From the NCBI GenBank assembly GCA_964405655.1, contig CAYOOO010000003.1, forward strand, positions 11,758-75,757: a DNA stretch of 64,000 nucleotides, read 5' to 3'. A program made the position numbers and the translations under genes. Shown here one piece after another: positions 19,282 to 56,600 of this stretch; positions within the stretch are counted from its first letter, which is position 1, and every line of letters begins with the position of its first letter. Source of the DNA: an uncultured Gammaproteobacteria bacterium (GTDB lineage Bacteria > Patescibacteriota > Microgenomatia > Daviesbacterales > UBA10151). The notes under the pieces were generated by a model, which worked only from the letters and a program-made list of their open reading frames with translations, made no database searches and was not told the origin of the DNA.

Positions 19282-19310
19282 ATTTTACGAATCTTAGCAG
19301 TTGTTGTCAA
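19282..19310 (-). promoter_or_regulatory. Sigma-70-type promoter of groES-groEL (TTGACA-N17-TAAAAT on the - strand)
   Basis: -35 TTGACA is the complement of 19305-19310, -10 TAAAAT the complement of 19282-19287, with a 17-nt spacer. Confidence 0.55.
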
Positions 19311-19320
19311 GACCTGCTAA
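19294..19320. promoter_or_regulatory. CIRCE-like HrcA operator (TTAGCAGTT-N9-ACCTGCTAA) overlapping the groESL promoter
   Basis: 9-nt arms with 8/9 complementarity and a 9-nt spacer, consensus TTAGCACTC-N9-GAGTGCTAA. Overlaps the -35 and spacer. Confidence 0.6.
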
Positions 19321-19415: not shown

Positions 19416-21641
19416 TTATTTACTGTTTTTATTTTGATCCTCTGGTTCTGGAGTTTTCTCAACTGGTAAACCTTCAATGCTAGCTGGCTTGGGATTTTTA
19501 TCTTGATCAGGATATAGTTGAACTACCTCTTCACCCAAAATATTTTTCTCAGGATTTGAACTTCCTGCTTCTTCTGGTGGAATTTCAGCTTGAGCCTCCA
19601 TAGTTTTAGGCTTCTCCTCCTGTTTAGTCTCAACATAAACTGTTTGCTCTTCCTCTTCCTCAGCTTGCATAATCTCCTGCACGACTTGTTTAGCTGCCTC
19701 CAGTTTAGCCTTTAAGTAGGCAATAATTTCATCCTTGGAAAATCCTCCCAGTAGTAAGAATGGCAAGATCTTGGAGACCATTTCTTTGCCAAGTCTCACT
19801 TTTTCTGGATCACCAGAGAGAAGTAGGTCGATAGCTTTTGGTATTTGCTTAATTTCTTCAAGCAGCCATTCTCTTCTGCTTCTGGGCCTGCCATCAGGCC
19901 CCAAGGGAGGCTCAAGTCGTTGGTAGTTTTCCTGCCAAGTCTTTTTAATTTCTTCATAGTCTTCTAAGCTGACTTTTTGAACCTGATTCTGCTCTGGTAA
20001 CTCTTCCTGATCAGCCTTCGTGGCTTTGACAATCGTTTGGGCTACGGCATTACCTCTATTTGCCTCCTGCATAACTTTAGTCATAATCGAGGCAAATTCT
20101 TCTTTTTCAGCTGGGGAGGCAAGCGGGCTTGCCCCAGTCAGTCTTTTAAGTGACTCATTTAATCGATGTATCTCTTCCTGACCAGTAGCTGAGTGGGATA
20201 GCAGAGCAGTTTCGAAACGGGAGATGTCTTGAATAGTCGGTATGGAAAGATTGGCCAAATCTAAAACTTTTGAGGCTGTTTGCTGACTTTCGATATTACC
20301 AATCAAATTAGGTTTACTAAAAGGTAGACTTCTGGCTAAACCTAAATCTTTAGGTAGCTCTAAAGCCCTAGAGGCAGCTGCCCCTTTAGAAGGAGGCAAA
20401 GGTGGGATTGGTGGTGGGGTAAAGACTGGCGGGAAAGGTGGTGGCTTAGGCAAGGAAGACCTGGGAGGCGGTGGAGAAGTTGAAGGTTGAGGTTTACTGG
20501 CATTAAGAATATACCTGACTAAACGGTTCTCAGGTAAATTGATATTGTTAAAGTAATCCAAAAAGATCTTAAGTAAGATAAAGGGCATAATAATAACCAT
20601 CCAAAGCATCAGCAGTGCAATCACATATTGGATAAATGAATCAGGTAGATTTAAGTTATTGTGGAATTTAATATCCTGACAGGGACCGCCCAAAAGAATA
20701 TTAATTGAGGTTGGATACTCATTTTTTGTCTTATCAACTTCATTTTTACATGGCAAGTTAGGAGTGCTAATAGGAATATAGAGCTGCCACATAGTCACAA
20801 GCCCTGCCAAAAAGACTGCAAAGAGTGGCCCGTATAAAAGCCAGCGGAAAAACTCACCTATCCAAATCTTAGCGCTGTTTCGAAGTGGCGAAAAAAGAAT
20901 TAGTAGGGGAAAAATAGGAGAAACTACCAAGAAAAACCAGAGGATGACTTTTCTCATGATCAATATAGCAAACATCACGTAATAAGTTGCGGCTGTTAAC
21001 TTAACTAAAAGCAGCGAAACTATTGCTGATTCGTCGTAAACATCACCAAATCTTCTATAACCAATAAAGTTTTTATAATCAAAAGCTACATTAAGTAGAT
21101 CTCTTGATGAGATCGGATTACCATCGGGTTTAATAAGAAAAAATCTTTGAACAATATCAAATATCAGATAGATAAATTGGATCAGGTAAAAAGACAAGGT
21201 TACTAGCACAATTGCTAAAACAAAACGGGGTATAAACTTTTTGACTGTTAAAGATGATCCCCGGCTGACAATCAAAAGAAAGGCTCCTGCTAAAATAAAT
21301 AGAGCCAAAATAGCATAAACAATCGTCCTGACTGTTTTCCAAATATTAGAAAACGGATTGTCCTTACCTTGATCAACAAAAGACCAGCCGTAGTTAGCAA
21401 CAACCCAATTCAGAAGGTCTGCGGAACGGGCGGCCAGTTTACCAGCATAGGTAACTTCCTTATCTAAAACCCAATCCCCTGATCCCTCATCATAATCATC
21501 ATCCGAGGTGGTTGTATTGTTTGTTGTATTGTTGGTGGTATTATTAGCACCCCAAGCAGTATGAACCGCTCCTCCCAAACCCAACAGGGGTAACAATGTT
21601 ACAGAAAAGATAACAAGAAAAATTAAATATCTTTTAAACAT
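19416..21641 (-). CDS. VirB6/TrbL-like polytopic membrane protein (type IV secretion-like), with Pro-rich and acidic C-terminal regions
   Basis: Signal peptide, N-rich extracellular segment, 6 or more TM helices, PPPP linker (SPPPPRSSLPKPPPFPPVFTPPPIPPLPP), long charged C-terminus. Immediately downstream of the pilin-like genes. Confidence 0.5.
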   Translation of the reverse strand: MFKRYLIFLVIFSVTLLPLLGLGGAVHTAWGANNTTNNTTNNTTTSDDDYDEGSGDWVLDKEVTYAGKLAARSADLLNWVVANYGWSFVDQGKDNPFSNIWKTVRTIVYAILALFILAGAFLLIVSRGSSLTVKKFIPRFVLAIVLVTLSFYLIQFIYLIFDIVQRFFLIKPDGNPISSRDLLNVAFDYKNFIGYRRFGDVYDESAIVSLLLVKLTAATYYVMFAILIMRKVILWFFLVVSPIFPLLILFSPLRNSAKIWIGEFFRWLLYGPLFAVFLAGLVTMWQLYIPISTPNLPCKNEVDKTKNEYPTSINILLGGPCQDIKFHNNLNLPDSFIQYVIALLMLWMVIIMPFILLKIFLDYFNNINLPENRLVRYILNASKPQPSTSPPPPRSSLPKPPPFPPVFTPPPIPPLPPSKGAAASRALELPKDLGLARSLPFSKPNLIGNIESQQTASKVLDLANLSIPTIQDISRFETALLSHSATGQEEIHRLNESLKRLTGASPLASPAEKEEFASIMTKVMQEANRGNAVAQTIVKATKADQEELPEQNQVQKVSLEDYEEIKKTWQENYQRLEPPLGPDGRPRSRREWLLEEIKQIPKAIDLLLSGDPEKVRLGKEMVSKILPFLLLGGFSKDEIIAYLKAKLEAAKQVVQEIMQAEEEEEQTVYVETKQEEKPKTMEAQAEIPPEEAGSSNPEKNILGEEVVQLYPDQDKNPKPASIEGLPVEKTPEPEDQNKNSK

Positions 21642-21646
21642 TACGC

Positions 21647-22030
21647 CTACTTAAATCCCGGCAGCTTAACTACATCAACTGCCACTATCCGATAGATGGC
21701 AAAGCCTGAAACCGCCATGATAATACCGATAATAGCTGAGATAATATAGCTTCGACCTCTGGCAAGCTGAGTTGAGTCCCCTTTTGAAGTAAGTATTAAG
21801 TAGCCACCATAGATAATAAAAAATAAAGCTACAGTACCAATAAATCCCAGACCAATTCCATAAATAGTACTGGTAAAACCAAATGGGTCTTGGGGAATAC
21901 AACCAAGCTCGGTGGGTGCACAAGTAGGAGATGGATTAGGACTTGGGCTCTCAGCCAGAATAGACTGTGGAGTTAAAAAGATAACTAAAATAATTACAAA
22001 TTTTAAGTATTTGAGCAGGAATTTATTCAT
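21647..22030 (-). CDS. VirB2/TrbC-like pilin-type small membrane protein (paralog 1)
   Basis: Signal peptide + two TM helices separated by a short basic loop (LTSKGDSTQLARGRS). Cys pair in the N-region. Confidence 0.5.
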   Translation of the reverse strand: MNKFLLKYLKFVIILVIFLTPQSILAESPSPNPSPTCAPTELGCIPQDPFGFTSTIYGIGLGFIGTVALFFIIYGGYLILTSKGDSTQLARGRSYIISAIIGIIMAVSGFAIYRIVAVDVVKLPGFK

Positions 22031-22036
22031 TTTAAA

Positions 22037-22441
22037 TTAACAACCAGTTAATCCTAAGATTGTGCAATCTATATTGGCAATCTTAGCAACTATTTTAATT
22101 AGGAAAAAAGCCAGTAAAATAATTACTAGCCCGACAATTGCAAAGGTCATGGTTTTTCTGGCATCCCTGACCCTATCCTGATCTCCCCCGGAGGTTAAGA
22201 ATTTAATTCCTGAGAAGGTAATAAAAAAAACTGTCACTACTGCTGAAAAACCTAAGATAAAACCGTTGATGTTGTTTAAAAAAACTGGGATACACTTTAG
22301 GGTAGCAATGCCCTGATTATCAATGCAGCCTTGTAATAAACCCTCATCAGCGGAGACATGTTTATAAAGATTGAAATAAGCTAGCAGCGATATTAAAAAG
22401 AGTAGGCTCTTTTTTCTCAAATTAATGAGTTCTAGGGGCAT
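22037..22441 (-). CDS. VirB2/TrbC-like pilin-type small membrane protein (paralog 2)
   Basis: Same architecture; loop FLTSGGDQDRVRDARKT. Confidence 0.5.
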   Translation of the reverse strand: MPLELINLRKKSLLFLISLLAYFNLYKHVSADEGLLQGCIDNQGIATLKCIPVFLNNINGFILGFSAVVTVFFITFSGIKFLTSGGDQDRVRDARKTMTFAIVGLVIILLAFFLIKIVAKIANIDCTILGLTGC

Positions 22442-22522
22442 ATAGAATTAGGGTATCACATATTTGGTTTTTTCGACATAACTTGGGTAATCAATTAAAT
22501 CTAGTGTAGAAGAGTCTAAAAA

Positions 22523-22954
22523 CTATGGTTTGACGTTTTTGAGGGTTGGCAACTTAAAACCCTCTTTAAGCGGATTATCAGCTCCTAATATGTTAAAAAC
22601 CACATTTAAAATAAAAAAGGTTCCAGCCACCACCACTAATCCAATTACAGCTGAGATTACGTGTTTGCGGGCTGACTCGACAGCGACTTTATCCCCCCTT
22701 GAGGTCATCCATCTAATTCCTCCATACATCAAATAAACTACAGCCAAAAAGATGGCTAGGGCAAAGATTAGGTTAACAATCAATTGAGGAATAGCTTCAG
22801 CATCAACATCTGCACCAACTGATCCTTTTGGAGGACCAAAGTTAGCCCCGCTGCCTTGAGCAAAAGTTGAGGTAGTCACAAGAAGAAAGGTGGCTTCGGT
22901 TAAGAGAAACGCGGTTCCTTTTTTAACTAAACTAGATATTCTGGGCATTACCAT
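22523..22954 (-). CDS. VirB2/TrbC-like pilin-type small membrane protein (paralog 3)
   Basis: Same architecture; loop WMTSRGDKVAVESARKH. Confidence 0.5.
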   Translation of the reverse strand: MVMPRISSLVKKGTAFLLTEATFLLVTTSTFAQGSGANFGPPKGSVGADVDAEAIPQLIVNLIFALAIFLAVVYLMYGGIRWMTSRGDKVAVESARKHVISAVIGLVVVAGTFFILNVVFNILGADNPLKEGFKLPTLKNVKP

Positions 22955-23079
22955 TTATGTCATCACACTTTCAATTTTTTGTCAATAGATCTTGGCTTTC
23001 TGGACAGATGTAAAACTGCTATATTGGAAGTACTACCAGAAAGCCATCACAAGTAGAGTACTCAAAAATATTTAAAATT

Positions 23080-24501
23080 ATGGGAACCAATAAGCTCCAT
23101 CGTGGACAATTCGGCTATAGAAACTACTGCAACAGAAATAGTTATGACCGAATTAGTCCAAAAGAAAAAGGCTATATAGAGTTTATCCTAATCTTACTTT
23201 TAGCTTTAGTAGTCCTCGCTCTCTGGCCAATCAAGTTTTCTAACCAGTCCACTAGCACCAATGACACCTCAACTCTAGCTAATCCTTGCAATCAAAACAG
23301 TGCCAGCCAATCAGCCAATATCCTTGCTCCGCCTTACCCTACCAAGGATAACGAAGACTCAGAAGGAGCTGATAGAGTATACAAACCTGTCCGTTTAAAT
23401 GTTCCAGTCAATATTCAGTTTTATAATACTGATAGACATTTTATAGTTAAACAACCAAATAGGACTATTAATGGTAAAAGTTATGATGTTTACTATCCTA
23501 ATAAACCCAACGGAGCAGGAGAAATCCGTTGGCCTCAAGGGATTGTCAGCAAGTACAGACATCCGGGTGATAAAAGAGATCTTCTTTACTTTACTGACTT
23601 TCATCTAATCTTTTTAGTCCAACTTAAAAATGGCCAACCAATTATCATGACTGGACCGGATGATAGAAACAGACAAGCAACTTTTTACCTGACTGATATC
23701 TATCAAGACAGCGGGGAATCGAATGTTCTACCTACTGATGCCTTTGGTTGTAAAAGTTCTAGTTCGGTTGACCCGAGTGAAGACGGAAATCAATCCAGAA
23801 TTATTTTCCCCAATCAAGGTAAAAGCCAAGATCAGAAACAACTTCAGCTTGAATACTTTGTTTTAGATAATGCCAGTAGTTCAGGAGCTATTATCTCTGG
23901 AGGTGGTTGGAGTCCTTTATGTAAACCTGCAATTTACTTGTATCCTCAGCAAAAACAGAGGGTTAATGTTAGGGTCAAAACTTTAGGTTACTTAACTTAT
24001 ACTGATCCAATTTATCCAAAAGAAACAGGCTGGATCGCAACTGCTTACCCAGATGGCAAAATAGAAACCAATCAAAAAACTTACCCTTATTTATATTATG
24101 AATCTAAAGTTGAGGATAAGTTTATTAAAAAACCTGATCAAGGGTTTGTAGTCAAATTTGATAAATTAGCAGAAACTTTTGATTTTCTCTTACCCAAACT
24201 TGGATTAGATCCAAACCAAACTAAGGACTTTAAGGATTACTGGACTAAAGCTTTAGCTTATTCTCCTTACTATTTTGTTGGTGTCATGAGTCAAAATGAG
24301 GTAGATCAAATTGAACCGCTTGAGGTTTCTCCAAAACCAGACACTGTTATTAGAGTCAGGTTGTACTTTCAAGCTTTAGATAGCCAAATTCAAGTAAGCC
24401 TGCCAATTTTAATCACTCCTCAAAAAAGTGGATTTAGTCTAGTAGAATGGGGCGGGCTAGTTAAAACTGACTCTCTTTCTCCTTTTACCTGCTCTCAGTA
24501 G
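23080..24501 (+). CDS. Hypothetical membrane-anchored extracellular protein (473 aa)
   Basis: N-terminal TM anchor (IEFILILLLALVVLALW), otherwise hydrophilic with no recognizable motifs. Opposite strand, embedded among the pilin-like genes. Confidence 0.45.
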   Translation: MGTNKLHRGQFGYRNYCNRNSYDRISPKEKGYIEFILILLLALVVLALWPIKFSNQSTSTNDTSTLANPCNQNSASQSANILAPPYPTKDNEDSEGADRVYKPVRLNVPVNIQFYNTDRHFIVKQPNRTINGKSYDVYYPNKPNGAGEIRWPQGIVSKYRHPGDKRDLLYFTDFHLIFLVQLKNGQPIIMTGPDDRNRQATFYLTDIYQDSGESNVLPTDAFGCKSSSSVDPSEDGNQSRIIFPNQGKSQDQKQLQLEYFVLDNASSSGAIISGGGWSPLCKPAIYLYPQQKQRVNVRVKTLGYLTYTDPIYPKETGWIATAYPDGKIETNQKTYPYLYYESKVEDKFIKKPDQGFVVKFDKLAETFDFLLPKLGLDPNQTKDFKDYWTKALAYSPYYFVGVMSQNEVDQIEPLEVSPKPDTVIRVRLYFQALDSQIQVSLPILITPQKSGFSLVEWGGLVKTDSLSPFTCSQ

Positions 24502-24505
24502 TAAA

Positions 24506-24865
24506 TTACTTTTTAATCTTGAGAAGATCTGAAGGTTTTCCGCCAGTTACTTTAATAACTAATGAAACAATGGCAAATGCTCCAACTACCAGAATTAATC
24601 CTAAGATTGAATACATCAGTCTCTTTCTAGCTTTTTGTAGTTTATCGCTATCCCCGCCTGAAGTAATCATCTGAATACCTGAGACCATCATCATAACTAC
24701 TATCAAAACAATTGCTCCTAAAAAAAGGAGGTTATAACCAGTCAGTAAAACTGGTAAACCACTAGTATTTATATCCCCTGTTAACTGGCTGGGTAACCCA
24801 GAAGGAGGAGGTAATTCTTGAGTTCCGCCAGATGAGGTAGGAATTTGCAGAGCCAAGTTATTCAT
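24506..24865 (-). CDS. VirB2/TrbC-like pilin-type small membrane protein (paralog 4)
   Basis: Two TM helices with loop MITSGGDSDKLQKARKR. Start 2 nt after the clpC-like stop. Confidence 0.5.
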   Translation of the reverse strand: MNNLALQIPTSSGGTQELPPPSGLPSQLTGDINTSGLPVLLTGYNLLFLGAIVLIVVMMMVSGIQMITSGGDSDKLQKARKRLMYSILGLILVVGAFAIVSLVIKVTGGKPSDLLKIKK

Positions 24866-24866
24866 G

Positions 24867-27668
24867 CTAGTCAGTTGAGGATACAGTGCTATTGTTAATC
24901 ATGACTGTGGGATCTCCTAAAGGCTGAATACCGCCAGATTCAGGATCAGCTGGGGCTGAAGAAGAAGCTAGCGACGGTTGCTGTCCACCAAAGTTTGGCT
25001 GAGTAGGAGTTTGAGGATTAGTAGACGCAGTCATCATTGAAGATGGAGTATTTGATTGATTTTCAGCCGGCTTGGCTGGTTGTGCAGAAGCGTGAACAGC
25101 AACTGGGTTGTGCATTCTATTGGTAGAAAAGCTCTGCTTATTAAAGGTGAACTTATCTTGGGTTGGATTATAGTCAACAATGACTGTATCCGAAGCGACA
25201 ATGCTTTTGTTGATTAGATAAATCGCAATTGGGTTCTCTATAACTCTTTGGATTAACCTTCTTAAGGGCCTGGCTCCGTAAACTGGATCATAACCCTCTT
25301 TAGCCAGTTGATTAAGGGCAGTTTGAGAGATCTGTAGCCCTACCTGCTGCTCTTTAAGCATCTTCCTAGTATTTTCAATACCAAGCTTGGCAATTTGGGT
25401 CATATGTTGTTGGGTTAGTGGCTCAAAGATGACTATCTCATCGAAACGGTTTAAAAACTCTGGCCTAAAGTGTTTATTTAACTCATCTAAAACCAGCTTA
25501 GATAACTTCCTAAAGTTGTTATCATCCTCAGTTGAATCAGTTGGTGAAGCCATAAATTGAGCTGGGATACCATCATCTTTTTTCGCCTGAACTTCGTTTG
25601 ATGGGTTAGGTTTGTCTGCTGCGGCAACTCCCATATAATAGCCTGGAGTTTGCTCTTTGGCAGCTTCAACTTTTTTATCTTCAGCAGTAGTTGATTTGGC
25701 ATTTTTAGCAGCTTGAGATTGGATTATGAAATCCCTAATTAAATTACTACCAACATTAGAAGTTGCTATCACAATGGTGTTTTTAAAAGAGACTGTATTG
25801 CCTTTATTATCAGTTAACCTGCCATCCTCCAGAAGCTGGAGCATAATATTAAAAACATCTGGATGAGCTTTCTCAATCTCATCTAAAAGTACAATTGAAT
25901 AAGGTTTTTTCCTGACTGCCTCGGTCAACTGACCTCCCTCCTCATAACCAACATAACCAGGTGGTGCGCCAATTAGTTTGGCCACCTCATGCTTTTCCAT
26001 ATATTCAGACATATCCAGTCTGATCATAGAAGTTTGAGCACCAAACATAATTTCTGCCAAAATTTTAGCAATCTCGGTTTTACCGGTTCCAGTTGGGCCT
26101 AGAAAGATAAAGGAGGCAATCGGTCGATTGAGATTAGCCAAACCAATTCTACCTCTTCTGACTGCCTCAGCCACAGCCTTGACAGCCCGGTCGTGATCAA
26201 TATATTTTTTATGAATTAGCTCCTCCAGATGCAGCAGCTTATCAGACTCTTTTTCAGTCAATTTAGCAATCGGGATGCCTGTTTGAGCAGAAACAATATT
26301 TTGGATATCAGCTTCCTTGATAGTAGAATCCTGTCTTTTGCCATTAGCTTGTTGGAGCCTTATTTCAGAGGCTGACTCGTCTAAAAGATCGATGGCCTTA
26401 TCCGGTAAAAACCTCTCGCCAATGTACCTTTTCGATAACTTGACTGCTGCTATCAAACTCTCCGGGGCAAAGGTCACCCGGTGAAACTTTTCATACTTGG
26501 GCTGAAGAATCTTCAGCATCTCAATCGCTAGCTGCTCATTTGGCTCCTCAGCTACAACTGGCTGGAATCTTCTTTGAAAAGCCTTATCTTTTTCCAAATA
26601 TCTTCGATACTCAGCCGTAGTAGTTGCACCAATGACTTGAATCTGCCCTCTGGCCAAGTATGGTTTTAAGATGTTTGAGGCATCTAGTGCACCACCTGTT
26701 TCACCTGCTCCAATAATAGTGTGTATTTCGTCAATAAACAGGATTATTTGGCCATTTGAAGCCATTGTCTCTTTAATAACCTGTTGTAATCTTTCCTCAA
26801 ACTCACCTCGATGTGAGGCACCGGCGACCAGTGAGGAAACTTCTAGTTGAATGATTTTTCGATTTTGTAGCTCAGAAGGAACTCTTTTTTGAATAATCAT
26901 CTGAGCTAACCCCTCAACTATAGCGGTCTTTCCAGTCCCAGCCTCACCAATAATAACCGGATTATTCTTGGTTCGTCTAAGCAGAATATGAACCATCCGG
27001 CGCATCTCAATATCCCGCCCGGCAACCGGATCTAACTTACCCTGAGCAGCTGCCTCAGTCAAATCTATCCCAAACTGCTTTAAAGCACTCTTCTTGCCGC
27101 TTTGAAACTCAGTGTTTTTAGAAAACTTTTCTTCTACTTTAGATTTATCTAAACCCTTGGCTTTAAGAGCCTCACTGGCTGTTGAGCTGGCTGAAAAAAG
27201 AGCCAAAAGCATATCTTCAGGTGTGACAAAATCCACTCCCCTACCTTTAGCACTACTGTAGGCAGACTCTAAAATCTGCTTGGAGGTCTCAGACAAGGTT
27301 GGATCAGCGCTAAAATTGCCTGGTTGCTGTTTGGCTTGAAGCTCACGGGTTAAATTGGCCACATCGACTGAAAACTCTTGTAAAGTATTAAAAATTTCCC
27401 GATCAGATATTAAGGCCAGTAAGAGCTGGTCTGGTTCAATAAAAGCCGCTCTTAACTTCTTTGCCTCCTCATAAGCTTGGGTGATGATCTGGGTAGCCCT
27501 GGCATCAAGATGAGAAAGCGCATTAATATCATGTTTTAAAATTGGATTAATATTCGAGTTAACCAAATTTTGAGCTTGTTTATCTGAAGATTTTTCAGAG
27601 GACTGATCTTTTTCGGACGTTACAGTTTGGTTAGTTTTAGCTGGAAATAGACTATCAAATAATGACAT
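24867..27668 (-). CDS. clpC: ClpC/ClpB-family AAA+ chaperone ATPase (two NBDs, Clp N-domain), with an unusual insertion in NBD2 and a low-complexity C-terminal tail
   Basis: Clp_N repeats, Walker A GEAGTGKTAIVEGLA (NBD1) and GPTGTGKTEIAKILA (NBD2), GYVGYEEGG, short middle domain. About 80-aa insertion (QAAKNAKSTTAEDKK...NFRKLSK) and about 110-aa Q/P/S/T-rich tail. Confidence 0.85.
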   Translation of the reverse strand: MSLFDSLFPAKTNQTVTSEKDQSSEKSSDKQAQNLVNSNINPILKHDINALSHLDARATQIITQAYEEAKKLRAAFIEPDQLLLALISDREIFNTLQEFSVDVANLTRELQAKQQPGNFSADPTLSETSKQILESAYSSAKGRGVDFVTPEDMLLALFSASSTASEALKAKGLDKSKVEEKFSKNTEFQSGKKSALKQFGIDLTEAAAQGKLDPVAGRDIEMRRMVHILLRRTKNNPVIIGEAGTGKTAIVEGLAQMIIQKRVPSELQNRKIIQLEVSSLVAGASHRGEFEERLQQVIKETMASNGQIILFIDEIHTIIGAGETGGALDASNILKPYLARGQIQVIGATTTAEYRRYLEKDKAFQRRFQPVVAEEPNEQLAIEMLKILQPKYEKFHRVTFAPESLIAAVKLSKRYIGERFLPDKAIDLLDESASEIRLQQANGKRQDSTIKEADIQNIVSAQTGIPIAKLTEKESDKLLHLEELIHKKYIDHDRAVKAVAEAVRRGRIGLANLNRPIASFIFLGPTGTGKTEIAKILAEIMFGAQTSMIRLDMSEYMEKHEVAKLIGAPPGYVGYEEGGQLTEAVRKKPYSIVLLDEIEKAHPDVFNIMLQLLEDGRLTDNKGNTVSFKNTIVIATSNVGSNLIRDFIIQSQAAKNAKSTTAEDKKVEAAKEQTPGYYMGVAAADKPNPSNEVQAKKDDGIPAQFMASPTDSTEDDNNFRKLSKLVLDELNKHFRPEFLNRFDEIVIFEPLTQQHMTQIAKLGIENTRKMLKEQQVGLQISQTALNQLAKEGYDPVYGARPLRRLIQRVIENPIAIYLINKSIVASDTVIVDYNPTQDKFTFNKQSFSTNRMHNPVAVHASAQPAKPAENQSNTPSSMMTASTNPQTPTQPNFGGQQPSLASSSAPADPESGGIQPLGDPTVMINNSTVSSTD

Positions 27669-40767: not shown

Positions 40768-43722
40768 CTAGTTAATTTGTTTAAATTTAACTAAGAAAGA
40801 TCTATCTTTTGATAAATCTGTTGAGATGTGAATCTCTTGAGGTCGAAAAGAACTTGAGTTTTTTTGGGCAGACTCTACAGTAATATTAATTGGGAAGGTT
40901 AAAGTCCACTCAAATGGATCCTTCTCTGTTCCTGGTTGTTTAATTACATCCAACCTATAGAGATTTTCCTTATTCATAAATTGTGTTGGTTTATCTAAGT
41001 TATAATCTAATACTAAGTTTTTTTGTTCTTTTGGTTGAAGGGTAATTAAAACTGAAAAGCCAGTCCGGCCAAAGTCTGAAAAACTGGACATTTGGGTAGT
41101 AATATCATTTTCTCCAAAAACAGCCTTTTGAATTTTTGCTCCTAGGGGTAGATAGATCTTAAACCTATTTTTATAAGGACCAGCTGGAAAAGCTTCTGAA
41201 GGGCTATTGTTTTTGTAGCTTATTGTTAGTTTATGGCTGATTTGACCTTCTTTACCAACCGTAGTCTCAAGCGAGTATTTCCTTTCAAGATAATAGTTAG
41301 ATTTGTTGGCACCCATATTTGACTCATTAGTTGACAGAAAGTCTGAGGTCTGCCCCTGACTAGCAGCTACTGCCCGGGGCATTACCCCTGCCCAGTTTTG
41401 AGCGATAGCATAGGAAAAGAGCTCCTGATCTGATAGATAAATTAACAGGTGTTTTTGTTCTAAAGAATCAGACAGAGATTGGATGATGCTTGGCCAGTTC
41501 TGCTTTGATAGATAAAACACCTTATTAAAAAGCTGGGTTTGTAGGGCTATTAAGAAGCTGCGTTTAGCCTGTGATCCAGGGAAAAAATTGACTTCAGCAT
41601 AGCTAATGACCTTTTGAAATAAATTATCGGCGTTAATTTTTTCTCCGTAATCAGATAGATCCAAACCACCCACTGCACTGATAAGCTTTGACGAGGCTGT
41701 CAAATCCATGGCGATAACCCCGTTAACTATCTCACCTGATGATTCTTTTTTATATAAAAATTCAGCTAACCTGGCTGAGGTGGGAAAATCTGGGTCAAAG
41801 TTAGCATCTCTTAAAAAGAGTCTGTTATGACCCATATCACTCTTAAACTCGGGTGGTGGCTCTATAACATCTTTGAGTTGACCATCAAGATTATAGATAT
41901 CATCAACCTTAATATTTACTATCCTGCCATTTTGAAAGTCGAGTCTGCCATAAGAACCAATAAAACCGCCGGTTGCTCGAAGCTCTAAGTTGTTTTGAAG
42001 TAAAACCAAATAGCTTTTTTTACCATCAACTGCTGTAATTTGGGGTATTAAATAGCTTGCTGCTGTCGCCTTTTCTACCAAATTAGAGTAGAAATCGAGT
42101 TTGGTTGACAAGTCTCTCACTCTTTTGTCTAAACCAAACGGCAAAGACTTTAAAAGACTACTATCTTCTAGACTAGCTTTGACTTTGGCTATTTTGAGAG
42201 AGGCTATTCCCAGTTCAGTCTGAGCTTTTTGATATAACGGTTTAGGATCTTCTGCTACCTCGCCTGAGATGATTTTAGAGGCTTGATAGAGTGACTGGGT
42301 ACCTCGCGTAGCATGATCAACTCCTCTAATCCCCTCCTCAGCTATAGCCAATATATTTTCCATTCCCTCAATCTCCTGGTTAAATAGCTTTAGACGCTTG
42401 AGTATAGCTAAAGAATTTGTTATCTCTTTTAGCTCGCCAAGCGATTTAAGAGCTGCCTGAATCTTTTGCTCTGCCCCTTTAAAGTTACCATGGCTAATAT
42501 CTAAAGCTGATGCCTTAAGGTTATTTCTGATATTTAAGGCCCCAAATCCAAGTTGAAAAATTGGAAAAATTAATCCATAGAAAATCAGAGCTAAAACTAC
42601 AAAGTAGGCTAAACTACTTTTAAGCCGAGTCAGAATCCTTTTGACTCTCCCCTGTCTTATGTCTTTTTTTTGTGTAAATCTTTTATCTGAACTGGCAGCT
42701 TTAGCCTCTTCATCTGTTTCTTCAGATTGTGACTGCTCTAAAACTTCACCCGGTTGATTAAAAGTCCATTTTTTAACATTTTTTTGCCAAATATCTTCCT
42801 CAATTTCTGGAACATGAATATTATTATCCTTAAAATAGGCAATAGTTCTTTTGAGTGATTGGATTAGACTAACTGAGGGTATCCAAGATAACTCCTTAAT
42901 AGTTCTTAAAAGATTAGGCGTTGACCAAGGCGGCAGTTCAGTTGGTTTAAATCCCTTCAGCTCATACCAAACTGGGTCTAGTAAAATCTGTTTAATCTCT
43001 GCAACTTTGATAGGCTGAGGGTTTGTACCATCATAGATCTTATGAGCAGTCGATCCTGAAAAAATAGACTTAACTACCAACTTAGCTGCATCCTCTATAT
43101 ATAGGGCCCGACTGCCAAAATCCAAAGAGGTTGTTTCATCATGCAAACTACCAAGCAGTGAGGCTTGAATAAGCCTGATGACTGGATCGTTTATTCTAAA
43201 ATGCATTCTTGGTCCAAATAGGCAGGCTAATCTGACTATCCGGGAGTTTAACTTATGATATTTTGAATATTTAGCAAAATAGATCTCTGCTGTTTTAAGC
43301 GCCTTGAGATCAGCAGAAACTTTATTATCATAAAGCAGGATTGAGGAAGTCAAAACAACTTTCGGTTTGAAATCTTTGATAAACTTTAAAAAATTAGCAA
43401 GTCCTGTTGTAAATAAAGGATGTGGGTTTTGGTTATCAGCTGCAAAAATTGCATAATCTAACCTTGGCAGCTCAATTGATATTCTTTCAGTAATTGATCT
43501 GTTGACAAGGTGGAATCTTTTATCCCTGATAACTTTTTCTAAGTTAATTTTTTGGCCAGTTGAAAAGTCATCTATACCAATTACTTGAATTCCACTCTCA
43601 ATTAAAATCTCAGCTATATAAGAACCTAGAAAACCGGCAACCCCCACAACTAAAGCAATCGGAGTGTTTCGCGAAACTAAAATTCTATTGTTCTCAATGC
43701 TATTTACGTTTATTTCCCCCAT
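40768..43722 (-). CDS. Fusion protein: N-terminal NAD-dependent epimerase/dehydratase-like Rossmann domain + TM segment + C-terminal DUF4012 domain
   Basis: VVGVAGFLGSYIAE (GxxGxxG) at the N-terminus; TM helix FVVLALIFYGLIFPIFQLGFGAL; C-terminal ...YLVLLQNNLELRATGGFIGSYGRLDF... typical of DUF4012. Confidence 0.55.
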   Translation of the reverse strand: MGEINVNSIENNRILVSRNTPIALVVGVAGFLGSYIAEILIESGIQVIGIDDFSTGQKINLEKVIRDKRFHLVNRSITERISIELPRLDYAIFAADNQNPHPLFTTGLANFLKFIKDFKPKVVLTSSILLYDNKVSADLKALKTAEIYFAKYSKYHKLNSRIVRLACLFGPRMHFRINDPVIRLIQASLLGSLHDETTSLDFGSRALYIEDAAKLVVKSIFSGSTAHKIYDGTNPQPIKVAEIKQILLDPVWYELKGFKPTELPPWSTPNLLRTIKELSWIPSVSLIQSLKRTIAYFKDNNIHVPEIEEDIWQKNVKKWTFNQPGEVLEQSQSEETDEEAKAASSDKRFTQKKDIRQGRVKRILTRLKSSLAYFVVLALIFYGLIFPIFQLGFGALNIRNNLKASALDISHGNFKGAEQKIQAALKSLGELKEITNSLAILKRLKLFNQEIEGMENILAIAEEGIRGVDHATRGTQSLYQASKIISGEVAEDPKPLYQKAQTELGIASLKIAKVKASLEDSSLLKSLPFGLDKRVRDLSTKLDFYSNLVEKATAASYLIPQITAVDGKKSYLVLLQNNLELRATGGFIGSYGRLDFQNGRIVNIKVDDIYNLDGQLKDVIEPPPEFKSDMGHNRLFLRDANFDPDFPTSARLAEFLYKKESSGEIVNGVIAMDLTASSKLISAVGGLDLSDYGEKINADNLFQKVISYAEVNFFPGSQAKRSFLIALQTQLFNKVFYLSKQNWPSIIQSLSDSLEQKHLLIYLSDQELFSYAIAQNWAGVMPRAVAASQGQTSDFLSTNESNMGANKSNYYLERKYSLETTVGKEGQISHKLTISYKNNSPSEAFPAGPYKNRFKIYLPLGAKIQKAVFGENDITTQMSSFSDFGRTGFSVLITLQPKEQKNLVLDYNLDKPTQFMNKENLYRLDVIKQPGTEKDPFEWTLTFPINITVESAQKNSSSFRPQEIHISTDLSKDRSFLVKFKQIN

Positions 43723-51640: not shown

Positions 51641-52759
51641 GTGAAGGTAACACTGCTTCAGCAGGATTTAATAGCTCCCTTGCAATCAGTTTCTCGCTCA
51701 GTTGGGGTTAAAAGCTCTTTACCGGTTTTAGCAAATATTTTAATCAGAACAGAAGATGGTAACTTAAAATTATCAGCTACCAATTTAGAAGTCGGAGTTA
51801 TCAAAACAGTTAAGGCTCAGGTTATTGAGGAAGGAGAGATAACTGTTCCAGCTAGGACGCTGCTAGAAATAGTCAGCTCATTAACCAGTGCCAAACTGAC
51901 TTTTGAAACCTCCTCAGATCAGCTCAAGATCTCAACTGATAACTTTAATGCAATCCTAAACGGGATCTCAGCCAGTGAATTTCCGACTATCCCGATAGTT
52001 AGTGAAAATACTGTTCATATAGAGGGTCAAATTTTAAAATCAACTATCCCGCAAATTACCTTTGCGGCAGCTAGTGATGAAGGTAGGCCGATTCTAACTG
52101 GTATTCTAACAGAGATAAAAAAAGACAGTTTGGAGCTAGTGGCAACTGATGGTTTTAGATTAGCTCATAAAACAGCCAAGATTGAGGGAGATGCAGACAA
52201 AAACCTTCGCTGCCTGATTCCCCGTCGGACATTTGAGGAAGTGGTTAGGCTAATAGCAGAGGAGATTGGGGAAGAGCAGAAAGAGAAGGTAGAGATCTCA
52301 ATGGCGGACAGTCAAAATCAGATGATCTTTAAGATAGGCCAAACCTTAGTCTCAACACGTTTAATTGAAGGCCAGTTTCCAGCCTGGGAAAAGATCATCC
52401 CAACTAAATTTGAAAATAGAACGATTATTGACAGGACAGAGCTTTTAAAAGCAGTCAAGCTTGCTTCGGTTTTTGCCAAGGGTGATGCTAATATCGTTAA
52501 AATTGCCACATCAGATGGTAAGCTGAAATTAACTTCAGAGGCTAAAGAGTTAGGGGGGCAGGAGAATGAGGTGGAGGCTCAAACAGAGGGGGTAGAACTT
52601 GTTGTTGCTTTTAACTCCAAATTTTTAATAGATGCTTTATCTGCCTGTCAAAGCAGTCAAATTAGAATTGAATTTTCTGGCAGCCTTTCACCAGCACTAA
52701 TTAAGCCTCTGGGAGAAGAGGGTTTGGAGTATGTAGTTATGCCAATCCGCCTAAATTAA
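51641..52759 (+). CDS. dnaN: DNA polymerase III beta sliding clamp (GTG start)
   Basis: Three-domain beta-clamp pattern (MKVTLLQQDLIAPLQSVSRSV...), follows dnaA and the oriC region. Confidence 0.85.
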   Translation: MKVTLLQQDLIAPLQSVSRSVGVKSSLPVLANILIRTEDGNLKLSATNLEVGVIKTVKAQVIEEGEITVPARTLLEIVSSLTSAKLTFETSSDQLKISTDNFNAILNGISASEFPTIPIVSENTVHIEGQILKSTIPQITFAAASDEGRPILTGILTEIKKDSLELVATDGFRLAHKTAKIEGDADKNLRCLIPRRTFEEVVRLIAEEIGEEQKEKVEISMADSQNQMIFKIGQTLVSTRLIEGQFPAWEKIIPTKFENRTIIDRTELLKAVKLASVFAKGDANIVKIATSDGKLKLTSEAKELGGQENEVEAQTEGVELVVAFNSKFLIDALSACQSSQIRIEFSGSLSPALIKPLGEEGLEYVVMPIRLN

Positions 52760-53202
52760 GCACCCCGATATTGAATGGTTTTGAAGTGAAAGATCTTTTC
52801 TACCTCAAGCCTTTTTTTACCATCAAATTTGGTATCAGGCAAGATCTTTAGGGTATAACCCTGACCAAGACTGTAGGGATTAATTGGAGTGATTTTAGCT
52901 GTTTTTCGGTCATCGCTTAACTCAACTTTAATTTTTGCTTCTGGCTCAACCACCAGCTTTAGTTCAGCACTGCCTTCCAGGGGTAGATTAAAACTAACAC
53001 TAATGGTTTGAGTGGGTAAGATTGTGGCATCCTCCAGGGGTGATGGATCAGTTGAGACAACTGCAGTATTTTGGGTGACCTTATCAACAATAGGAGCAGT
53101 TTTAGGTGGGGTATAAAAACCAAATCTAAAAATAGCAATCAAGGCTGCACCAATGATCGCTACTGCAATCATAATCTTTTGTTTTAAAGATAAGTTGGTC
53201 AT
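52756..53202 (-). CDS. Membrane-anchored Ig-like (SbsA/Big-like) small protein, paralog A
   Basis: N-terminal TM helix + about 100-aa beta-rich domain. 4-nt overlap with the upstream paralog. Confidence 0.45.
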   Translation of the reverse strand: MTNLSLKQKIMIAVAIIGAALIAIFRFGFYTPPKTAPIVDKVTQNTAVVSTDPSPLEDATILPTQTISVSFNLPLEGSAELKLVVEPEAKIKVELSDDRKTAKITPINPYSLGQGYTLKILPDTKFDGKKRLEVEKIFHFKTIQYRGA

Positions 53203-53654
53203 GTTCCAGAATAAGGAGCTGTTCTAAAATCCATTATAATATTTTCAGGAATTTTTTCTCCATCGGTTCCTGTTAAAACACCATCAATAGTTAACTTGTA
53301 TTTAGTTTCAAACTTCCAGATCTTTTTAGGGGCTATTTGAATAGTCTGACCATCAGGCTCAAGCATAAGATCGAAATCTGTTTCAGGTTCGATTGATACT
53401 TTAATTGTTCTTTCGTCTACTGGTTTACTAAATTTGAAGGTAATTTTATCAGAGACGTTAACCAAGGATTTGTCAAAGCTTGTACTTGTTACACTAAGAT
53501 TTGTTTGCGGGCTAGTACCAGCAGGCTGTTTAGGAGCAGAGTTTTGTGTATTTTTTGGCAGTAAGGCCTTACTAAATGTAAGCACAATTAACAATATTAA
53601 TAAGACTATTATTAAAATTACAGTCTTAGGGTTTAAATATTTCATTGTGTACAC
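53199..53654 (-). CDS. Membrane-anchored Ig-like small protein, paralog B
   Basis: Same architecture as 52756..53202. 13-nt overlap with the giant hydrolase gene. Confidence 0.45.
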   Translation of the reverse strand: MYTMKYLNPKTVILIIVLLILLIVLTFSKALLPKNTQNSAPKQPAGTSPQTNLSVTSTSFDKSLVNVSDKITFKFSKPVDERTIKVSIEPETDFDLMLEPDGQTIQIAPKKIWKFETKYKLTIDGVLTGTDGEKIPENIIMDFRTAPYSGT

Positions 53655-56600
53655 ATTCCCAAATCACGATCAGGGTATTTCCATCCCGGATCATAAAGCT
53701 GTAGATTATTGGCTGTTATCGGTTCAGCGATATTTAGCCCAACTGTAACATGAATATGGTAACCTGGGCCACTGGCCGATGAAATTTGAGCGATAGGTTT
53801 GGTAGTATCAACGCCTTGCCCAGGAGTAAAGGATGGTTCGGCAATAGCGTGAATAAAGTGCATAGTCCATTTGCCTTGGGCTGTTTGCTCAGACTGAAAG
53901 ACCCTCAAGGTTGCACCGATGCCGTCGGGAAAGTCATTTATAAAGTTCCACTTCAAAACTTGGCCATTAATTGTTGGGATATAAACATTTTCCCCAACTT
54001 TTCCACCAATATCAATAGATTTAGCTGTCCTTTTAAGATTGCCTCCTGAGATATAGTTTTTGTCATCGCAAAGTCCAGGATAAGCAGCACGGTATTTGGG
54101 GCTACAATGGCCCCCAATGTTATTTTCTCCTGTTGAACTATTTGACCCTAAAGCACAAACACCATCAAATCCAGACCAGGTAGCCTCAGATCCATACGAT
54201 GAGCAAATAATCTTACCTCCTGGAATTGGGCAAGTAGCTTTACCCAAAACCACCGAGGGTGGAGCACTACAAACCGGTAGTAGACCTGCGGATCCTAATC
54301 CTGATGATGGTAAGCCGCCTCCGCCGCCTGGCTTACATGGTTGACCACCAAGAAAATTTGAAATTCCATTACAATATCCTAAAGCAATATCATCTGTATA
54401 AGCATAGAGATCGCTATAGTCAGATTTTGTCTTCATATAATTTTTCATTATTATTCCAGGCATTTTTCTCTTACGCTGGATAGATGGGACCTTTCCTCCA
54501 TAATAGCCGCCGGTCTTTGCACCCTGAGGTCCCAGAACATAGTACTCCAAGCCTTCTTGGTCATCTGTTCCTTGATCTGTACCTACTTTTGTACTCTCAT
54601 CAACTTTAAAGGTAATTCCGCTGACCTTGTTCTTTAGCTGCTTTGTAACTGCTTGTCCCATCGTTTCACCTAAACGTTTACTCTCTGAAGAGAAGGGTCC
54701 TTTCTCAGAATAGATCGGCCCAAAAGAATTTGTTTGGACTCCAGCATCAGCATGGATTGAGATAAAGGCTGCTGTATTATTTGAATTGGCAAAATCAACC
54801 CTTTTTTGTAAATTTTCATAGTAATCAACCTCCTCACAACTACCGTCACTATTAGGGTTATAAACTTTAGCATCAATGCCATTTTTTTGTAAAAGACTTG
54901 CCAATTTTTTAGCCTGTTCGATATTTAGTTTATTTTCAGCTGCTTTATTTTCTTTATACTTATCATTTGAACAGTGACCAGGATCTAAAACAACAATAGG
55001 TGGTTTTGTCACAGTTCTTTGAAGCAAGCTAGAACTTACTTGACCAGCGCTACAGCTTGAAATACTTTCGAACAGGTCATCACCATAGTTGTATTGATCT
55101 GCGTCACCATAAATCAATCCTCCATAATAGCTTCTGGCAAGCTGTGAGACTTTAGTTTTATCATTTGTCCATTGGGGATTCCAGCTACTAGCACCCATCT
55201 TAGCTAAGATAAAACCACCAGCCATGGTAATATTTTTCCTTGGATCACAGTAATCTTTAAGTGTTAGGTTATTAACACTTTTACCAATCAGCTCAGCTCC
55301 TTTTTGAACTGCATCTTTAGCATGTCCATTTGTACCAGGTGGTTGAATCTGCATAACCCCAAGCGCATTATTTGAGCTAACTGGGCAAACTGCTTTTTCA
55401 GTCCCCGGGATCTTAAGAGATTTTATCTTAGCAATCTCTGAGGCAGAGTTACTATCTGTCAAAACTACATTCGGGATACTACGGTTTTCAATATAGCTAA
55501 TATCTTCGTCAGTATAATCTGAAATAGTATAGGTACCGGTTGTAGATTCAACTCTGGCAATTCCTGCTAAAACTGATGCTGGAACAGTTGACTTTTGTGA
55601 GGCTTCTTGGAAATAGCTTAATAGCTTGCTGCTTTGGTAAGGGAGAGAGGCTCTGGCGCCCTGGTCACTTTTAGTAAATTTACAAGCTGCCAATGTGCCT
55701 GTTTGAGCAGCAACTGGTTGGCTAGATTGTAGAATTGGTGTACCTTTAGGATCACATGCGTTTACCTCTACCGCCAGTTCTACAATATCATTATAGGAGT
55801 GAATACAGTTGTTGTTTTGAGAGACATTATCATTTTGCTCAGCTGCCTCAAGCAAAGGTGATCTTGATCCAAAAACTTCCGCAAAGTCATCAAGTGTTTG
55901 TAAAGGCAGAGTTATTGGCTGATCTTTATAGATGTCATAATTTGAGAGTGTTTGACCTTGGTAAGAGTATTGAGGCGTTTTATTATTTCTATTCTCAGAA
56001 TAAAATTTACAGGAGGGACTACTTGCGTCTCTGCTGACAAGACATTTGGCAGGGCTCACCCCTGGTCCGTCACTTAAACCTAATGCGCACTCAACCTGAT
56101 CGTTGAAGTTATTTGGTACAAAAACACAGCCTAATGATTCACCAAATTTTGATTCTGATCTCCAGTAAGCCAGACCAATAACCGGGTTAATGCCTTTTGA
56201 CTCAGCTTTTTCTTTTATATAGTTAGCCCGCCTGATAAATTCATCTTTAGATGAATACTTTCCTTGAGCTTCAGGCCAAAACCTTTCAACAAATTTGGTC
56301 ATCTGAGCATCAGTTAAATCGCCGTAAGGATAAGAAGAGCTGAATTTATTAGTAAAAAGCGGCACAGTTGGATCAAAATATCTACATGTTTCTGGAGTAG
56401 TTTTTCTGTTGGCTGCAATCGCATCCAAAGATGGGCAACCTCCTGAACCAGTGCTGGCTCCTCCAGCTCCTGCTGGAAAACAAGCTTGAGTGGTAGGAGG
56501 AAGTTGGCCAGGAATTGGTAATAGAGCAGTGTTTTTGATTTGGTCCCAAAAGATAAAAATTCCTATGGTGACAATTAAAACTATTCCTATTAGCCAGCCT

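Follow-up and report, generated by a model that had tools for sequence, protein, structure and literature searches.

Diverged VirB2-like pilin genes and a VirB6-like protein in a Microgenomatia chromosome: probable parts of a known type of Patescibacteria secretion system

Type IV secretion systems (T4SS) with "VirB2 arrays" have been described for Patescibacteria (McLean, 2020; Wang, 2023; Quiñonero-Coronel et al., 2025). A VirB2 array consists of 2–11 pilin genes which are in tandem or one non-pilin gene apart, with a mean identity of ~25% and a maximum of 54% (PMC12102498). The array of Nanosynbacter lyticus TM7x was noted earlier (McLean, 2020, PMC7427843). In Southlakia epibionticum, SEML1_0013 (VirB6) and SEML1_0014–0019 (the pilin array, for which the listed rows carry PF18895 or the name "pilin") are essential for epibiotic growth. 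For Patescibacteria, and for Microgenomatia among them, T4SS genes for VirB4, PrgI, and a TrsD-like protein have been described near dnaA, devoid of a relaxase (Quiñonero-Coronel et al., 2025, PMC12102498). Here, we describe a locus from a 64-kb stretch of DNA (contig CAYOOO010000003.1; the whole stretch is referred to as the window) which codes for four small pilin-like proteins (p1–p4), a polytopic protein of 741 aa, and an embedded protein of 473 aa (p473).

The locus matches the published Patescibacteria T4SS with VirB2 arrays, so that the system as such is already described. As in SEML1_0006–0019 of S. epibionticum, in N. lyticus TM7x, and in the systems surveyed in PMC12102498, several diverged PF18895 pilins are found beside a VirB6/TrbL-like protein. 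There are four of them, p4 and p3 being separated by the 473-aa gene, and their identity of 25–37% is in the range of a VirB2 array. We consider it probable that the locus is the membrane and filament half of a chromosomal, non-conjugative Patescibacteria T4SS, the wall-breaching and energising half of which is encoded ~29 kb away.

The pilin paralogs and the VirB6-like protein

All six open reading frames (ORFs) which had been listed for the locus in an earlier reading of the DNA (the sequence-only reading) were found again with the same coordinates and strands, including the 473-aa gene on the opposite strand. Together with the adjacent Clp gene, they are:

19416–21641, minus strand: extended VirB6/TrbL-like polytopic protein, 741 aa (PF04610 via family members)
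21647–22030, minus strand: p1, VirB2-like T4SS pilin, 127 aa (PF18895 at 19.8 bits, below the cut-off of 26.6)
22037–22441, minus strand: p2, VirB2-like T4SS pilin paralog, 134 aa (PF18895 at 35.6 bits)
22523–22954, minus strand: p3, VirB2-like T4SS pilin paralog, 143 aa (PF18895 at 31.5 bits)
23080–24501, plus strand: p473, N-terminally membrane-anchored protein, 473 aa (no family match)
24506–24865, minus strand: p4, VirB2-like pilin paralog, leaderless, 119 aa (PF18895 at 32.9 bits)
24867–27668, minus strand: Hsp100/Clp AAA+ ATPase, 933 aa (Clp_N and two nucleotide-binding domains)

The gene for p3, which is annotated with 141 aa at NCBI, is the first of the string p3-p2-p1-VirB6, in which 5 nt separate the stop codon of p1 from the start of VirB6. 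The upstream neighbour of p4 is the Clp gene, and p4 starts 1 nt after the clp stop codon. In this lineage, groES and groEL are found downstream of VirB6, and p4 comes directly after clp. The window differs by 2 mismatches in 21.4 kb from contig JACOXF010000005.1, which belongs to a groundwater metagenome-assembled genome (MAG) of Candidatus Daviesbacteria, Microgenomatia (GCA_016176395.1).

The four small proteins are paralogs, as had been proposed. Pairwise BLASTP comparisons gave E-values from 2e-15 to 7e-5, with 31–37% identity over aligned stretches of 50–99 residues (the mutual identity of the four is 25–37%); the E-values between p1 and the other three ranged from 1e-5 to 1e-10. The gathering threshold of PF18895 (T4SS_pilin, 26.6 bits) is passed by p2, p3, and p4; p1 remains below it, yet is homologous to p2–p4 by BLASTP. 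For the TrbC/VirB2 family (PF04956, threshold 27.9 bits), sub-threshold matches were obtained for p3 (24.0 bits) and p4 (17.5 bits), while p1 and p2 were not listed. All four match NF045849 (Mbov_0395 pilin-like, from integrative and conjugative elements [ICE] of Mollicutes) at 20–33 bits, with p4 at 33, below the cut-off of 40 bits. Judged by sequence, p1–p4 are members of the T4SS_pilin family and are VirB2-like in architecture; they are not demonstrable as members of the classical TrbC/VirB2 family. The VirB2-type T4SS pilin homology proposed in the sequence-only reading thus stands for PF18895, passed by three of the four, with PF04956 remaining sub-threshold. When the window ORFs (all those of 50 aa or more) were searched with a hidden Markov model (HMM) of p1–p4, no fifth copy appeared.

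Each pilin has two hydrophobic segments (Kyte-Doolittle values 2.1–3.0) around a basic TSxGD...AR(K) loop, in agreement with the two transmembrane (TM) helices and the loop motifs of the sequence-only reading; the invariant alignment columns include T81, S82, G84, D85, and R93 (p1 numbering). Signal peptides had been assigned to all four proteins. An N-terminal hydrophobic segment resembling a signal peptide is present in p1, p2, and p3 only. The N-terminus of p4 consists of ~35 hydrophilic residues, as in the p4 orthologs of four other genomes. The VirB2-type architecture (leader, two helices, basic loop) is thus found in p1–p3, while p4 lacks the leader. In addition to its predicted signal peptide and two TM helices, p1 has a pair of cysteines and a C-terminal LPGF motif; the cysteine pair and a C-terminal (I/L)PGF are conserved in p1-type pilins of other species.

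Two other assignments of the small proteins were rejected. No holin family is matched, and the genes are kept beside VirB6 in chromosomes. The layout of type IV pilus or competence pilins, a class III leader with an N-terminal hydrophobic helix, is absent, and T4SS pilin families are matched instead. The competence-type pilus considered in the sequence-only reading finds no support in the partner genes either, which are those of a T4SS (MPF_FATA-like) and not those of a type IV pilus or Com system.

Full-length homologs of the 741-aa protein number in the hundreds and come from MAGs of Daviesbacteria, Levybacteria, and other Patescibacteria. Among 40 aligned family members, 31 match PF04610 (TrbL/VirB6, gathering threshold 25.9 bits) at E<=0.01. 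When 10 full-length orthologs (43–59% identical to the window protein) were tested singly, seven passed the threshold (P0091, 34.2 bits; P0048, 31.3; P0040, 31.0; P0023, 28.1; P0018, 27.3; P0006, 27.0; P0003, 26.9). The matched segment always maps to residues ~114–305 of the window protein, with 59–71% identity in this region. VirB6 homology is therefore well supported at the level of the family only, the predicted fold being without a match to a solved VirB6 (TrwI). The exact 741-aa sequence is absent from a collection of 15 billion proteins, in which all its neighbours are present and its best relative is 70% identical.

The predicted signal peptide of the protein is followed by an acidic segment rich in N and T, about five long hydrophobic helices (96–366), a Pro-rich linker, a C-terminal domain, and an acidic tail. 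In the AlphaFold2 model, which has a mean predicted local distance difference test (pLDDT) score of 66, the helices span residues 96–125, 133–169, 203–248, 251–288, and 333–366. A confident helical domain with an invariant LPFLLLGGF motif follows at 445–666. The linker (~383–442) and the acidic tail (~668–741) are predicted to be disordered; both the poly-Pro stretch and the acidic tail had been correctly recognized. An "extended VirB6" is a polytopic core with a C-proximal hydrophilic domain (T4SS nomenclature review, PMC12857230), and the model predicts this architecture for the 741-aa protein, with at least five hydrophobic helices and the C-proximal domain of the extended form.

The diderm conjugative T4SS of the Ti plasmid (VirB) and of R388 (Trw, with TrwI as VirB6) share with this locus a small leader-bearing pilin with a two-helix hairpin and a basic loop, and a VirB6 with ~5 hydrophobic helices. 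They also share a tight genetic coupling of VirB2 and VirB6, which is consistent with VirB6 as the site of pilin recruitment and assembly. In contrast to these systems, the cell envelope is monoderm, sequence similarity remains sub-threshold (24 vs. 27.9 bits for PF04956), VirB5, VirB7, VirB9, VirB10, and VirB11 were not detected, and the window VirB6 has a C-terminal extension of 370 residues.

Pilins, VirB6, and p473 in related loci

A total of 80 species-level loci with relatives of the 741-aa protein were fetched, and their ORFs were labelled by HMMs built from the window proteins (denominators vary from 68 to 83; individual loci are designated L005, L007, etc.). VirB6 is immediately preceded by a pilin gene in 75 of 78 loci, and the gap between the two is ~4 nt (median). 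In the R388 system, membrane-embedded VirB2 is recruited by TM helices of VirB6, and the pilus is assembled on a VirB6 pentamer as its base (PMC9259494). The adjacency of the two genes fits this model. All 69 VirB6-adjacent pilins from other species which were compared match p1 best (top matches 50–59% identity). On the basis of this comparison, p1 is taken to be the ancestral VirB6-coupled subunit.

A single pilin is found in 70 of 83 loci. The expansion, which the sequence-only reading had suggested looking for in related genomes, was found as arrays of 3–4 pilins in the window lineage and in eight related species-level loci. Positional orthologs from other species share 38–63% identity, compared to 25–37% among the paralogs of one genome; for p2–p4 taken by themselves, the values are 35–60% (35–55% for p2 and 43–60% for p3). 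The window order, clp-p4, p473 (on the opposite strand), p3-p2-p1-VirB6, is shared by L007, L008, and L048, while L018 has the order p3-p2-p1-VirB6-clp-p4. The adjacency of clp and p4 is kept in all four; p4 begins 1 nt after the clp stop codon or overlaps it in the window, L008, and L048, and a gap of ~100 nt is found in L007. Because positional orthologs are closer than in-genome paralogs and because gene order is conserved, the paralog set is old and fixed, which argues for functional specialisation and not for antigenic variation.

The sequence-only reading had left both options open. Of these, functional variation, in the form of specialised subunits, is favoured by the old and fixed set of paralogs. 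Antigenic or host-range variation would require interchangeable major pilins that are expressed alternatively, as is also suggested in PMC12102498. The strong divergence of the paralogs outside the TM-loop core (25–37% identity) would fit this, as would the VirB2 paralog families of Bartonella and Anaplasma (cited in PMC12102498). Such variation is nevertheless highly unlikely: the one-to-one positional orthologs are closer than any in-genome paralog, copy number and order are fixed (3–4 genes in the eight related loci), and p4 is structurally distinct (leaderless) in all its orthologs. Furthermore, three independent metagenome contigs of the same organism are 100% identical over the locus, so that no strain-level variation is seen.

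The embedded protein p473 begins with a basic tail of 32 residues and a single TM segment (33–51), which are followed by two predicted extracytoplasmic domains. It had been described as a secreted protein; given the TM anchor, a membrane-anchored extracytoplasmic protein is the better description. The structural model (pLDDT 80) predicts a beta-rich domain (~80–225) and a highly conserved, very confident alpha/beta C-terminal domain (~284–473). The conserved module is formed by the C-terminal ~220 residues, and Cys281 and Cys471 are invariant. The family comprises 7030 cluster representatives (50% identity clusters) at E<=1e-3. No match was obtained in Pfam, NCBIfam, PDB sequence-profile, or Foldseek-PDB searches; a Bet v1/START/LolA-like fold is not trusted, as its best Foldseek probability was <=0.05. 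Larger members of the family carry no informative extra domain except for one ankyrin fusion. A paralog, HYS93_00835, is encoded in the same genome.

Of the 83 loci, 16 have a p473 gene within 10 kb of a 741-aa-type VirB6; the gene then sits inside the array or separates VirB6 from Clp. It is embedded at the same position in L007, L008, and L048, and is between VirB6 and Clp in seven other species. A role of p473 as a predicted cell-envelope accessory of the T4SS is possible.

The VirB4 locus and the chaperone genes

Components of a T4SS which are not encoded at the pilin/VirB6 locus are found ~29 kb (~28 coding sequences, CDS) away, beside dnaN and dnaA:

60165–61367, minus strand: PrgI-family (VirB3-like) protein, 400 aa (PF12666 at 31.9 bits, above the cut-off of 27)
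59323–60168, minus strand: TrsD-like protein, 281 aa (NF041427 TrsD at 40.2 bits, below the cut-off; weak VirB4 N-terminal matches)
57522–59336, minus strand: VirB4-like T4SS ATPase of the CD1110 family (MPF_FATA), 604 aa (NF045971 at 388.5 bits, above 325; PF19044 at 97 bits)
53642–57472, minus strand: cell-wall hydrolase, a VirB1/PrgK-type candidate, 1276 aa (Amidase_3 PF01520 at 66.9 bits; SLT PF01464 at 21.7 bits)

The locus starts with prgI, continues with trsD and virB4, and has the hydrolase gene as its last large member; long unannotated regions flank the SLT and Amidase_3 domains of the hydrolase. With VirB4 and PrgI above their cut-offs and the TrsD-like protein below its own, the set is of the MPF_FATA type. 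VirB6 and pilin genes are absent from this virB4 locus. Neither a relaxase domain nor a type IV coupling protein (VirD4/TcpA-type), the two hallmarks of a conjugative T4SS, was detected in any ORF scanned within the 64 kb of the genome covered by the window.

Directly downstream of the hydrolase gene and beside dnaN, two small proteins (148 and 151 aa) are encoded at 52756–53654 (minus strand). Each has an Ig-like Big_5 domain, and the 148-aa protein has an N-terminal hydrophobic segment and a weak match to archaeal-type pilin_N. Divergently oriented to prgI is the gene for a 393-aa protein (61706–62887, plus strand) which lacks a family match and has a Cys-rich C-terminus (CHGC...C..C..C). 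Between the two T4SS loci is a surface-polysaccharide cluster, in which genes for a Wzy/O-antigen-ligase-like protein and a polysaccharide flippase adjoin that for a 984-aa protein (40768–43722, minus strand) with a short N-terminal NAD-epimerase-like segment and DUF4012.

The partner genes correspond to those of the described Patescibacteria T4SS: MPF_FATA-type VirB4, TrsD-like protein, and PrgI near dnaA and no relaxase. Differences from the surveyed systems are the distance of the pilin and VirB6 genes from virB4, which exceeds the ±20-CDS neighbourhood of the survey, their location among chaperone genes (clp and groESL; dnaK in relatives), and the 473-aa gene inside the array. The window VirB6 is of the divergent type which is called "scarce" in Microgenomatia (PMC12102498). 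Among the 83 loci, VirB4 and PrgI are never encoded within 10 kb of a 741-aa-type VirB6. This distance probably explains why VirB6 appeared to be scarce, as it places the gene outside the ±20-CDS neighbourhood.

The Mollicutes ICE are also similar. They are monoderm, MPF_FATA-related systems with a small pilin-like protein, the window pilins match NF045849 (Mbov_0395) sub-threshold, and the second-best match of the window VirB4 is NF045975 (Mbov_0397; 263 bits, cut-off 590). Unlike these mobile, DNA-transferring elements, the window genes are chromosomal, near oriC, and without a relaxase in the 64-kb window.

The relatives of the pilin/VirB6 pair are embedded in a conserved set of chaperone genes. 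Of 70 loci, 66 have a Clp ortholog (median 57% identity) after VirB6, either directly downstream (59 loci) or beyond a p473 gene (seven more); the median gap is ~43 nt. Directly upstream of the pilin, and on the same strand, are grpE/dnaK/dnaJ in 50 of the 68 loci with enough upstream sequence. In 43 of 83 loci, an operator of the CIRCE type (controlling inverted repeat of chaperone expression; up to 3 mismatches) precedes VirB6 at a distance of 3.6–7.8 kb. The genes of most relatives form the string CIRCE-hrcA-grpE-dnaK-dnaJ-pilin-VirB6-Clp, all on one strand and separated by short gaps (e.g., L005, 3438–13000, with CIRCE at 3363–3389). At the same tolerance, no canonical CIRCE is present anywhere in the window. 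Upstream of groES, a strong sigma-70-like promoter (TTGACA-17-TAAAAT; 19282–19320) overlaps a degenerate CIRCE-like palindrome, TTAGCAGTT-N9-ACCTGCTAA. No mention of a linkage between pilin/VirB6 and chaperone genes was found in the literature searched.

The 933-aa Clp protein has no ClpB M-domain, its Walker A motifs are 283 aa apart, and it aligns with ClpA in one stretch and with ClpB in two, between which the M-domain is left out. A ClpP-docking [LIVM]G[FL] loop is absent. Among NCBIfam models, ClpB matches it best, at 879 bits, which is under the equivalog cut-off. The protein has a low-complexity insert (~650–720) and a long Q/P/S/T-rich tail. A second Clp-like paralog of ~800 aa with ~35% identity to the first is encoded ~3 kb downstream of the VirB6-linked Clp (L019, 18079–20475, plus strand; equivalents in ~30 loci). 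In the L019 sequence, the N-terminus carries a membrane anchor and the first Walker A motif is degenerate. In L005, the ~3 kb between the two Clp genes hold an M4 peptidase gene and two small ORFs.

This synteny may reflect function, either through an unfoldase or chaperone working with the T4SS or through heat-shock co-regulation. An old insertion into a dnaK-clpB string is more economical because the 933-aa Clp looks like the ordinary Hsp100 of the lineage. A more far-reaching proposal, speculative and rather unlikely, is that the VirB2/VirB6 half of the Microgenomatia system is hard-wired into the heat-shock string. The Hsp100, devoid of M-domain and ClpP loop, would then be a dedicated secretion partner, comparable to ClpV of the type VI secretion system; it could take the place of the missing VirB11 or VirD4 ATPase, either in the extraction or recycling of pilins or as an unfoldase for cargo. 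The leaderless p4, which starts at or within the clp stop region in most genomes with an array, and p473 would be further undescribed components.

The same synteny could also be taken to mean that the pilin-VirB6 pair is uncoupled from the T4SS, being a membrane module of DnaK/Hsp100 proteostasis or being served by the adjacent Clp instead of VirB4. In favour of this are the frequencies of grpE/dnaK/dnaJ, CIRCE, and Clp beside the pair, the position of Clp between VirB6 and p4 in L018, the p4 genes that abut or overlap the clp stop codon, and the consistent distance from VirB4 and PrgI. We consider such an uncoupling highly unlikely as well. Both proteins are homologous to T4SS components, and the window T4SS would be incomplete otherwise, since its virB4 locus has neither a VirB6 nor a pilin of its own. 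In Saccharibacteria, the homologs are inside the virB4 cluster and show the same essentiality phenotype. In addition, the 933-aa Clp resembles an ordinary Hsp100, the second Clp is membrane-anchored with a degenerate first Walker A (L019), and a plain insertion into a dnaK-clpB string gives the same synteny.

Proposed role of the locus

Several results weigh against the assignment of the locus to a T4SS. Searched by itself, the 741-aa protein matches neither Pfam nor NCBIfam at E<=1. The VirB6/TrbL-like call of the sequence-only reading fails for the protein alone, and the lack of VirB6 profile similarity, which that reading had named as a reason to give up its proposal, literally applies to it. 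Both points are overturned at the family level by the orthologs which pass PF04610. The family profile gave only noise against PDB sequences, including solved VirB6 chains, and a Foldseek search with the full-length model (pLDDT 66) gave nothing significant in the PDB. A comparison of the family with the single A. tumefaciens VirB6 by hhalign was not significant (E 0.22); a diverse alignment of plasmid VirB6 sequences was dropped, as tblastn returned almost solely close relatives from Rhizobiaceae. The corresponding comparison of the four-pilin profile with A. tumefaciens VirB2 was weak (E 0.0048, probability 7%). VirB5, VirB8, and VirB11, which are needed for diderm pilus biogenesis, were not detected in the window. 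The pilin-VirB6 pair sits among chaperone genes and is never closer than 10 kb to virB4 (83 loci), so that a physical cooperation with VirB4 has to be assumed. Finally, no visualised pilus of this type was found for any patescibacterium in the literature searched.

It is extremely improbable that the small proteins are not pilins but effectors or toxin-like subunits, exported by Sec and delivered by the T4SS (by analogy to Ptx/Ptl, as proposed for TM7x; McLean, 2020): an array of small proteins, three of them with signal peptides, does lie beside T4SS genes as in PMC7427843, but the two hydrophobic helices and the basic loop dominate these proteins and leave little soluble mass, pilin and not toxin families are matched, p4 has no signal peptide, and the arrays of TM7x and S. 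epibionticum were re-annotated as VirB2-like pilins in later papers.

As one half of a Patescibacteria T4SS, the locus may function as follows. By analogy to R388, the pilins would form helical hairpins in the cytoplasmic membrane, entering it via Sec (p1–p3) or without a leader (p4), and their basic TSxGD...ARK loop would face the cytoplasm. The TM helices of VirB6 would recruit the pilins, with VirB6 serving as the assembly base. The VirB4/PrgI module would extract the pilins, powered by VirB4, and the giant hydrolase would open the cell wall. The product would be a short pilus or a conduit across the wall towards the host cell. Protein or host-derived material is the more likely cargo; conjugative DNA is less likely because neither a relaxase nor a coupling protein was found in the window. 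Published work on Saccharibacteria also points away from conjugation. As old, lineage-specific additions at fixed positions, p2–p4 may be minor or specialised subunits of a heteromeric structure.

Apart from the T4SS of Patescibacteria, no T4SS is known on which the growth of its owner depends. The locus is a well-resolved example from Microgenomatia. To the described system it adds the age and order of the paralogs, the location of the divergent Microgenomatia VirB6, the chaperone/Clp linkage, and the p473 family. It would place the "missing" VirB6 of this class, which is divergent, paired with one ancestral pilin type, and encoded far from virB4. If the extra pilins are ancient, fixed subunits and not variable antigens, the hypotheses on the make-up of the filament or conduit become fewer. 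The recurrent linkage to DnaK and Hsp100 is a testable lead on the regulation or energetics of the system.

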